Below, piece by piece: positions 21,501-24,500 of a DNA stretch of 64,000 nucleotides. The position numbers were made by a program. The stretch's first letter is position 1, and every line of letters starts with the position of its first letter. Where the stretch lies: NCBI RefSeq assembly GCF_056712565.1, contig NZ_CM160072.1. One strand, written 5' to 3'.

Positions 21501-24500
21501 CCACTTCGCACAGTAGCTGCCCGGTCACCGGCGTCAGGTTCTGGTAATACTCGCCATCGGCAGGCGCTACCCATTCGCCACCGATAAAGTTGTCGTAGCG
21601 GGCTTTTAATTTGAGGGGGAAACCATACTCGCCGGGCTTAATCTGTGCTGAAGGGGGATTATTGGTCATGATCGTCTCCTTGCTGTGTGAGGTATAACAA
21701 GGGTAGACGTGACTGGCGAAATCTTCGCCAGTCGGTAACAGCTTTACGACGGCTATCACGAATTTACGGGCAAAAGCTACAGCGGGTAGTGTGCGACGTA
21801 CACTGCTTGCTGGTTATTAATTCTTTTCTCTTGCGCGAATCCTTCTTTAACAATTGTCCGTAAATCGGTCCGCGCCGTATTATCCGAGACGCTCAGACTC
21901 ACACTAATTTCAGCAACTGTGTACTCTTTCCCCGGATTGGCGAGCATCACATTCAGGAGCGTTACCTGGCGCGGATTCAGGCGTTTAAGCACACCAGAGC
22001 TAAACAGCACACTATCGAGTTTTGCGCTTCGTTGTGTAATTTCATCGATATGCTGCTGCCAGTTTTGCAGAGCACGTTTAATGACACCCGCCTGATATTC
22101 AAGGAAATAAGTCAGATCCATACCATCTGATTCAGTGTACTGGTAGCTGGCGGCATATTTGACCGGTGCAGCATGAAGCAAACTGCTGATGGAAATATAT
22201 TTAAAGACATCGTAGCCCGATTTCAGCATATACCAGTAAAACAGCGCCCGACTGGTGCGCCCGTTGCCATCGCGAAATGGATGTTCATGGGCCAGCATAA
22301 AATGCAGAATGCAGGCACGGACCAACGGATGAATATACCCTTCATGGCTGTTTAACCACTGGCAAACTTTTTCCAGCCGTTCCGGTAACAATGCCGCAGC
22401 GGACGGTTGATGCACTATATTGCCATCATAGTCGGCGATCACAACATCATCTGTTTCACGAAATTCTCCCGGACGATATTTCGCGTCATTGATTCCACCC
22501 ATACCAATGGCATGTAACTGGCGAATAAGCGCAGGTGTCAGCGGTTCTGCGAGTAAGTGCGGAATTTCCGCCATCAGCCGGGCATTTCCCGCAATCATAT
22601 GCTCGTCTTCAGTGCGTGGCGACCGCCCTGTTTCCAGCATTTTTCTCGCCACCAGCGTTGTAGTATTCGCACCTTCCAGCTGGGAGCTGGTGATCGGCTC
22701 TTCCAGGCGTAACTGGCTTAACTCGGCTCCGGCCCCGCGTAACCGTTCAGTCTGATCTTTCAGCGCCAGCGCGGTAGCACGTTTGTCGACAAGCTCGCAC
22801 GCTTCTGCAATCACCGGGGTAATGTTGAATCCGGCCTGTTCACCCGCTTCATTGCAATAATTAATTCGTTGGATCGCCGCGTTGCGCGCCAGACGGGTAA
22901 GCGTCCACGCCACATCGACGTTTTCTCCTTTTTTGATGCGGTACTGCAACTCATCAAAAGGCAGATAACGTCCTTTTTCATCGGTAACCCGGTTAAAGCG
23001 CAGGTGGGCCAGGAGTTCCTCACCCGATAAGTGTGATAAAGGAATAAGTCCGGGAGGTGATTTGATAGCCATGTGCTTATCTCAAAAAAGCGCAATATTG
23101 AGATAGTGTATAGCAGGAAAGAGAAACTATCTCAAAAAAAGCAAGTTTTGAGATAGTTGAAAAAGCGGCTGACAACTCGCCAGCCGTTGTGGGAATGATG
23201 ATTACATCGCTGCGCGATAAATCGCCACAATTTCTTCGTGAGTTGCCTGAATCGGGTTAGTAAAGCCGCAGGCATCTTTCAGGGCATTAGTCGCCAGAAC
23301 CGCGAAATCTTCTTCTTTCACGTTCAGGTCGCGTAGGCCTGCCGGGATATCCACTTTCTTCGCCAGTTCACGGATGGCGTTAATGCAGGCTTCAGCACCT
23401 TCCGCGTCGTTTTTACCTGTCACGTTCACGCCCATTGCAGCGGCACAATCACGCAGACGTGCAGCGGCGACTTTGCTGTTGAATACCTGAACATGCGGCA
23501 GCAAAACGGCGTTACATACACCGTGTGGCAGGTTGTAGAAACCGCCCAGCTGGTGCGCCATCGCATGAACATAACCCAGAGAAGCATTATTGAACGCCAT
23601 ACCGGCGAGGAACTGGGCATAAGCCATTGCTTCACGCGCTTTCGCATTACTGCCATCTTCAACGGCTAACGGCAGGTTTTCGGCAATCATGGTCACGGCT
23701 TTCAGTGCACAAGCGTCAGTGATCGGCGTGGCGGCAATAGAAACATACGCTTCGATAGCGTGCGTTAAGGCATCCATACCCGTTGCGGCGGTCAGTGACT
23801 TCGGCATACCAATCATCAGAGAGGAGTCATTGACAGAAAGCAGCGGAGTTACATGTTTATCCACAATCGCCATTTTGATGTGACGCGCTTCGTCAGTGAT
23901 GATGCAGAAACGGGTCATTTCAGAGGCCGTACCCGCCGTGGTGTTGATGGCGATCATCGGCAGCTGCGGTTTTGCAGAGCGGTCAACGCCTTCATAATCG
24001 CGGATGTCACCGCCGTTGGCTGCAACCAGCGCAATACCTTTTGCGCAGTCGTGTGGAGAACCACCGCCTAAAGAAATCACGCTATCGCAATTATTTTCTT
24101 TAAGTAATTTCAAACCTGCGGCGACGTTTTCCGTGGTGGGGTTAGGTTGGGTGCCATCATAAATAACGCTAAAAATATTGCGTTCTTCCAGTGCTTTTTG
24201 CACATCACCCGCCATACCCAATTTCGTTAACATATTGTCGGTGACAATTAAGGTACGGGTAAATCCATAATCTGCCATCATATTCATTGCATCATTCAAT
24301 GAATCAGCACCAATAACATTCACGGAAGGAATAAAAAAGGTTGAAGCTGCCATAACACACTCCTGAAAGTGTAAAAAAGGGCGGGCAGCTTACTGAGGAT
24401 TTTCATTTGAAAATATGATCAACATTACCGTTTATTAAAATATTTTTAATAAAAAGCACGTTACATTCATCAAATAACGTGCCTTCTTAACATTAATAAG

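Follow-up and report, generated by a model that had tools for sequence, protein, structure and literature searches.

Fic proteins carrying a winged helix-turn-helix (wHTH), such as CccR, SoFic, and CbFic2, have only recently been understood as dual proteins that act both as transcription factors and as AMPylases, enzymes transferring AMP from ATP to a hydroxyl group of a protein. We analyzed a fic gene located between aldB and yiaY in a 64,000-nucleotide stretch of Escherichia coli DNA (the window; contig NZ_CM160072.1 of RefSeq assembly GCF_056712565.1), which is 100% identical to E. coli ATCC 11775 / DSM 30083. The reading that we propose, and consider probable, is that of a stand-alone, chromosomally inherited, and autoregulated class II Fic-wHTH enzyme with a family-specific N-terminal domain, ancestral at this locus and later deleted.

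CccR of Yersinia pseudotuberculosis (YPK_0951; 7XUX) is, like the Fic protein of the window, a class II enzyme whose inhibitory motif is N-terminal and whose helix-turn-helix (HTH) is C-terminal. It is a dimer, in which 70 Å separate the DNA-binding helices, and represses its own gene via inverted repeats located at the -35 box and at the -10 box (PMC9755527). The cccR gene adjoins an effector cluster belonging to the T6SS (type VI secretion system), and CccR is secreted and targets FtsZ; no such context exists at fic. SoFic (SO_4266; 3EQX/3ZCN) binds the 100 bp located upstream of its own start codon and AMPylates EF-Tu (bioRxiv 10.64898/2026.07.09.737422), and a 47-aa antitoxin gene, AS1, is reported downstream of the Sofic gene of E. 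coli H397 (PMC12249575). CbFic2 of Coxiella burnetii (CBU_0822; 8CIL) is an effector that targets histone H3 of the host; it combines AMPylase and deAMPylase activities, which are regulated by dimerization and switched by DNA binding (PMC10628234). CbFic2 and SoFic can each AMPylate or deAMPylate, and they switch from one activity to the other according to their oligomeric state or to DNA binding (PMC10628234; bioRxiv 10.64898/2026.07.09.737422). The eukaryotic class II enzyme FICD/HYPE, which targets the endoplasmic reticulum chaperone BiP, also switches between AMPylation and deAMPylation by oligomeric state.

Domain organization and relatives of the Fic protein

The coding sequence of fic (21777..23072, minus strand) starts with ATG and specifies a protein of 431 aa, as found both in our list of open reading frames (ORFs) and in the RefSeq annotation (WP_000985743.1, "Fic family protein"). 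A preliminary description of the window, made from the sequence alone, had reported this ORF together with a perfect Fic active-site motif and an inhibitory motif indicative of class II, and all three stood up to our analysis. A profile search, which that description had proposed as a check, identified the Fic core domain at residues 177-281 (Pfam PF02661, E=4.6e-19; 22230..22544, minus strand). The core includes the catalytic motif HPFRDGNGRTSR, which maps exactly to 22248..22283 (minus strand; residues 264-275). This motif, H264-PFRDGNGRTSR-275, conforms to the canonical HxFx(D/E)GNGRxxR, and its H, F, D, G, N, G, R, and R residues are invariant in an alignment of 27 homologues displaying 41-75% identity, on which all our statements on motif conservation are based.

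Class II Fic proteins are defined by a (S/T)xxxE(G/N) motif located N-terminal to the Fic motif in the same chain (Engel et al. 2012 classification, restated in PMC9755527); in this class, the inhibitory Glu reaches the second Arg of the Fic motif and prevents ATP from binding productively. The motif S129-S-Q-L-E133-G134, encoded at 22671..22688 (minus strand) as the preliminary description had indicated, bears this signature of the inhibitory helix 131 residues ahead of H264 in the same polypeptide, and it is also invariant in the 27 homologues. The class I FicTA arrangement, in which the inhibitory helix comes from a separate small antitoxin gene, does not apply since the motif is intramolecular and no partner ORF was found.

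The two ends of the protein flank this catalytic core. Residues 1-98 (22779..23072, minus strand) form a conserved domain made of helices and a β-hairpin, for which neither Pfam nor the PDB (Protein Data Bank) yielded a match. The first 100 aa contain residues that are invariant in the alignment (D31, Y36, R45, W56, and R63), and the domain is missing from SoFic and CccR. At the other end, a high-confidence AlphaFold model of the protein (predicted local distance difference test score 89, predicted template modelling score 0.84) places a classical wHTH at residues ~365-431 (21780..21980, minus strand), with a recognition helix around S396-D-N-T-A-R. In the model, residues 367-427 form three helices (367-378, 386-392, and 397-409) followed by a β-hairpin (strands 413-417 and 423-427). 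Pfam profiles HTH_DeoR and HTH_11 matched residues 369-412 weakly, and significantly in homologue P0088. The best Foldseek matches in the PDB were Fic-wHTH proteins, namely CbFic2 (8cil), SoFic (3zcn/3eqx), Dde_2494 (4rgl), and CccR (7xux), with 16-22% identity, followed by FICD. The DNA-binding C-terminus postulated in the preliminary description is thus predicted by the model and by its fold matches.

Comparison with individual relatives revealed both shared and distinctive features. CbFic2, the top Foldseek match (E=1.1e-11), has the same combination of Fic and HTH modules, but it is only 21% identical to our protein, does not require a defined operator to bind DNA, and lacks the N-terminal domain. 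SoFic and E. coli H397 Sofic share the Fic and wHTH fold (template modelling score of 0.6-0.7) and the inhibitory Glu, and SoFic binds its own promoter; in contrast, our protein is 17% identical to SoFic, has the extra N-terminal domain, and is encoded by a gene with neither an AS1-like neighbor nor a defence island around it. CccR is shorter (380 aa), without the ~100-aa N-terminal domain, and displays 16-18% identity. The best PDB match by sequence was FICD (E=2e-11), which has in common with our protein the Fic core and the inhibitory-Glu logic, but contains tetratricopeptide repeat and membrane-anchor domains and no wHTH. The PADLOC hidden Markov model for SoFic (PDLC03963) aligned with residues 96-427 over profile positions 30-351 of 361 (E=1.5e-41).

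Candidate operators at the fic promoter

The 129 bp between the yiaY terminator and the fic ATG contain two 28-bp palindromic candidate operators that match TATCTCAA-N12-TTGAGATA exactly, one proximal (23078..23105) and one distal (23128..23155), 50 bp apart from start to start. These are the only two exact matches in the 64 kb, whereas shuffling the window with its dinucleotides preserved gave an expectation of 0.01. Within the right arm of the distal operator, the inner part provides a -35-like hexamer, TTGAGA (23130..23135, minus strand), and a putative -10 hexamer, TATACA (23107..23112, minus strand), is located 17 nt downstream, both being read from the sequence. The proximal operator, which covers the transcription start, begins 1 nt past the -10 box and stops 5 nt short of the ATG; a GAG triplet resembling a Shine-Dalgarno sequence is supplied by its right arm. 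The upstream boundary of the fic cassette is the intrinsic terminator of yiaY (23166..23186, minus strand), detected by a terminator scan and also present in sites devoid of fic. As RNA (23060-23112, minus strand), the proximal operator, lying in the predicted 5' untranslated region (5'UTR), could form an 8-bp hairpin pairing the GAG triplet; we do not retain it as a regulatory 5'UTR hairpin because the structure is too weak (−9 kcal/mol, z=−1.9).

To assess conservation, we surveyed 80 loci of relatives, with one genome per species, and counted the 74 loci for which at least 120 bp of upstream sequence was available. The core TCAA-N12-TTGA was present within 120 bp of the start codon in 29 of the 74 loci, against a frequency of 0.0018 per 120 bp in the rest of the same loci. 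The proximal site was kept at about -27 to -35 in 28 loci, and a second copy was found 50-51 bp further upstream in 14 (at about -31 and -82). Among the 29 aligned promoters, 25 had a TAnnn[T/A] element at the matching -10 place. With the promoters anchored on the proximal site, the same succession of -35 box, 17-nt spacer, -10 box, operator, and ATG recurs for homologues that are only 36-45% identical to the query, in taxa including E. albertii, Pseudescherichia, Photorhabdus, Buttiauxella, Alteromonadales, Marinomonas, Halopseudomonas, several Pseudomonas, and two Leptolyngbya cyanobacteria. Loci of the fluorescent Pseudomonas group (L017, L021-L064) mostly do not have the core and contain other palindromes, such as AAAACTC-N6-GAGTTTT.

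Sequence covariation was observed between the operators and the recognition helix. At four loci (L026, L036, L033, and L029), replacement of the N-cap Ser of the recognition helix by Ala (C-S-Y-N-T-A to C-A-Y-N-T-A) accompanies a change of the half-sites from TCTCAA to TTTCAA, i.e. a C to T change at position 4. In the other operator-bearing loci, the recognition helix begins with S-Y or S-D. This pair of changes is a candidate protein-DNA specificity contact, and recognition of these bases by the wHTH would be expected to give such a pattern.

As for CccR, palindromic operators overlap the gene's own promoter, here at the level of sequence. The designs differ, since the CccR operator is AGATAATCAT-N26-ATGATAATCT whereas fic has two copies of the TATCTCAA-N12-TTGAGATA palindrome; the half-site centers are 20 bp apart, which would correspond to about 68 Å and matches the 70 Å helix separation of CccR. 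Because the operators lie at the promoter of fic, are kept upstream of distant homologues, and have an experimentally established counterpart in CccR, the fic product appears to repress its own promoter; we infer both the binding itself and a repressing rather than activating effect.

Ancestry of the aldB-yiaY locus and search for partners of fic

Of 5426 complete E. coli genomes, 1572 (29%), including O157:H7 and the type strain of the species, have fic between aldB and yiaY. It is absent from K-12 MG1655, in which aldB (b3588) and yiaY (b3589) are adjacent and separated by 164 bp, and likewise from BL21, with the same spacing. The preliminary description, which had given the K-12 layout correctly and had seen no integrase or insertion sequence beside fic, concluded that a single accessory gene had been inserted. 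In the annotated 15-kb neighborhood, the flanks are indeed core metabolic genes without any integrase or insertion sequence, but the insertion itself was not borne out by the sequence of the empty sites.

In the orientation of the gene, the intergenic regions of K-12, BL21, and F11 consist of the yiaY terminator, followed by CAACTATCTC and then by TGTAA(C/T)CCTTGCCCG. The CAACTATCTC segment represents the distal operator's outer arm, 9 nt of this operator remaining in K-12. The TGTAA(C/T)CCTTGCCCG segment is identical to the terminal part of the fic allele of O157 type (TAT CCG CTG TAA CCCTTGCCCG), comprising the last codon, the stop codon, and the 3' flank. The downstream breakpoint in K-12-type genomes is located at the O157-type fic 3' end, TAT CCG CTG TAA; according to our junction comparison, the corresponding end of the coding sequence in the window reads CAC TAC CCG CTG TAG (21777..21789, minus strand). 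A scar was present in every empty E. coli site that we examined, and about 576 E. coli genomes retain the whole distal operator in the absence of fic. In unrelated genomes, the operator forms part of the fic cassette, and these remnants are hence deletion scars rather than pre-existing targets. The genome of E. coli 042 (NC_017626.1, hit H49) matched only the first 46 nt of the query containing the scar with the whole operator, which suggests that another allele or another type of scar exists at the locus in phylogroup D.

In E. albertii, fic has the same arrangement, immediately upstream of aldB, and its product displays 95% aa identity with that of E. coli. The synonymous divergence (dS) between the two species was 0.27-0.33 for fic and 0.36 for aldB. 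The ratio of nonsynonymous to synonymous divergence (dN/dS) for fic was 0.07 in this comparison and 0.20 between the ATCC 11775 and O157 alleles (dS of 0.06). Thus, fic is under purifying selection, with dN/dS values of 0.07-0.20 relative to the O157 and E. albertii alleles. Together, the remnants in the empty sites and the fic-aldB arrangement of E. albertii, with its aldB-like dS, indicate that the ancestor shared by E. coli and E. albertii had fic between aldB and yiaY, the K-12 state corresponding to a loss and not to a gain. The junctions further indicate removal of fic by a short-homology deletion in most E. coli lineages, amounting to about 71% of the complete genomes, K-12 included.

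The converse explanation, that fic was recently acquired as an accessory gene inserted between aldB and yiaY, would account for its absence from K-12 and from about 71% of the genomes, and, at a larger scale, horizontal mobility of the family is observed. It is already contradicted by the scars, by synteny with E. albertii, and by dS values like those of a core gene, which rule out insertion by a mobile element, and we give it hardly any credence.

The preliminary description had also reported a hairpin between the fic stop codon and aldB. The hairpin is real (GACTGGCGAA-nnn-TTCGCCAGTC; 21711..21733; 10-nt perfect arms and a 3-nt loop) but is not part of fic. Its presence in unchanged form in empty sites, and its lack of a T-run, rule it out as the fic terminator and assign it to the upstream region of aldB. 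The terminator scan detected no terminator in the 107 bp that separate the fic stop codon from the aldB start.

To look for a partner or antitoxin gene, we compared all ORFs of at least 40 aa flanking the homologues with one another by BLAST, and none was shared across genera; the only recurrent associations were internal to Pseudomonas and reflected synteny between species, and no ORF was retained as a conserved partner. In the fluorescent Pseudomonas group, the conserved neighborhood comprises an ORF of ~1020 aa upstream and an ORF of ~230 aa on the opposite strand downstream of the homologue. Because no flanking ORF is shared across genera, fic has no AS1-like antitoxin: no such small gene was seen in the interval preceding aldB, nor any conserved ORF of at least 40 aa beside the homologues across genera. 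Full-length members of the family are encoded by some plasmids of Klebsiella, Aeromonas, and Vibrio, and phage records contained only shorter relatives that do not have the N-terminal domain.

The GC content of the fic region was unremarkable, and an Rfam search of the region returned no family even at E≤1. Elsewhere in the window, the GC content drops to 0.33-0.38 at 24200-24800 (the 5' end of yiaY together with the region separating yiaY from selB) compared to ~0.53-0.58 around. On the other side of aldB (20131-21669), sgbE/araD (19389-20084) directly abuts aldB in the window, with only 20085-20130 between them, and in E. albertii L003, whereas yiaV and yiaW lie between sgbE and aldB in K-12 and BL21, a second presence/absence polymorphism. 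On the K-12 map, yiaT and yiaU also lie between sgbE and aldB.

Proposed restraints on the enzyme and alternative explanations

The best-supported reading is that of a doubly restrained enzyme, limited by autorepression at two operators and by Glu133 acting on catalysis. A dimer would bind each operator via its two winged helices, one operator covering the -35 hexamer while the other spans the 5'UTR and the start of transcription, so that the protein would repress its own synthesis and be kept at a low level. In addition, Glu133, which belongs to the intramolecular inhibitory helix, would block the catalytic site (H264). Some signal would relieve one or both brakes, leading to AMPylation of a cellular protein and to growth slowing or arrest. 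By analogy with the relatives, the target could be a GTPase involved in translation or division, e.g. EF-Tu or FtsZ. With Glu133 in place, the enzyme may run the reverse reaction. The transfer of AMP, the target, and the trigger are aspects that we infer, as is a physiological role in phage defence or stress arrest.

Several observations weigh against this reading. A strict scan for the σ70 consensus called no promoter in the upstream stretch of fic, the putative -10 hexamer TATACA ending in A, and the terminator scan gave a weak hairpin score to the distal operator as well. The exact TCAA-N12-TTGA core is missing in 45 of the 74 homologue loci, many of which have other palindromes. The protein scored 37.1 bits for the NCBIfam SoFic equivalog NF046030, versus a cut-off of 550, and its identity to every characterized relative is only 16-22%; the target and the trigger are therefore not transferable from these relatives. 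Together with the PADLOC SoFic match, the same data place our protein within the class II Fic-wHTH group, as a remote member and not as the ortholog of any studied protein. Our literature search found no paper on this specific fic gene and no experiment on its protein. Finally, with the phages tested, no anti-phage effect was detected upon deletion, or upon cloning in K-12, of a SoFIC predicted by PADLOC/DefenseFinder in E. coli NILS69, a B2 strain (PMC12409345), the identity of this SoFIC with fic being unverified.

The NILS69 observation also weighs against an alternative in which fic would be a single-gene abortive infection system of the SoFic type, phage infection relieving the autoinhibition and AMPylation of an essential host factor aborting the infection. 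This is possible, if somewhat doubtful. The matches to the PADLOC SoFic profile (E=1.5e-41) and to phrog_5978 (E=8.5e-53) are in its favor, as are the patchy presence of fic within the species, the plasmid-borne members of the family, and the toxicity of E. coli Sofic, SoFic being a reported defence gene (PMC12249575). However, fic is flanked by core metabolic genes and not located in a defence island, its product failed the NCBIfam equivalog cut-off and has an extra N-terminal domain, no small partner ORF resembling AS1 is conserved, and the gene has been vertically inherited since before the split between E. coli and E. albertii with dN/dS values of 0.07-0.2. An anti-phage role is plausible as the physiological role of the doubly restrained enzyme, with which it is compatible rather than mutually exclusive.

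Weaker cases can be made for two other functions. The protein might mainly be a transcription factor in which the Fic domain is a regulatory or sensor module, by auto-AMPylation or deAMPylation, with a regulon extending beyond its own promoter, possibly to aldB. The deep conservation of the operators, the influence of CccR on other genes, and the coupling of DNA binding to catalytic state in CbFic2 are consistent with this view, and read-through into aldB is conceivable since no terminator was found between the two genes. We nevertheless consider it quite unlikely: within the window, the only two operator matches are at the fic promoter, and the invariance of the catalytic and inhibitory motifs in the family argues for action on a substrate. 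In addition, homologues occur in unrelated genomic contexts, so no specific neighbor is a conserved target. The other function is that of a secreted interbacterial toxin like CccR, i.e. a T6SS effector also acting as a transcription factor in kin cells. Despite the same Fic and HTH architecture and the same logic of an autoregulatory palindrome, this is highly improbable, as the identity to CccR is only 16-18% and no T6SS or effector-immunity gene lies within 6 kb on either side of fic. No T6SS was found in the annotated 15-kb neighborhood, nor any T6SS-type gene among the conserved neighbors of the homologues.

The family might constitute a self-contained one-protein switch, in which the N-terminal domain would sense a signal, for instance a phage or stress cue, and thereby trigger both release of the dimer from its two operators and unblocking of the Fic site. 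We regard this as unlikely. If true, it would couple de-repression and activation of a growth-arresting AMPylase in a single polypeptide, and the protein-operator pair would be conserved as a unit from cyanobacteria to enterobacteria.

Absence of a gene from K-12 need not mean that it was inserted in other strains. K-12 is a natural null mutant of fic that still bears the scar, and thus provides a clean host for assays of toxicity, target identity, and anti-phage activity. The well-defined and deeply conserved operator pair makes DNA binding and autoregulation directly testable. The fic gene described here represents a large, uncharacterized branch of the Fic-wHTH group, distinguished by an additional conserved N-terminal domain.

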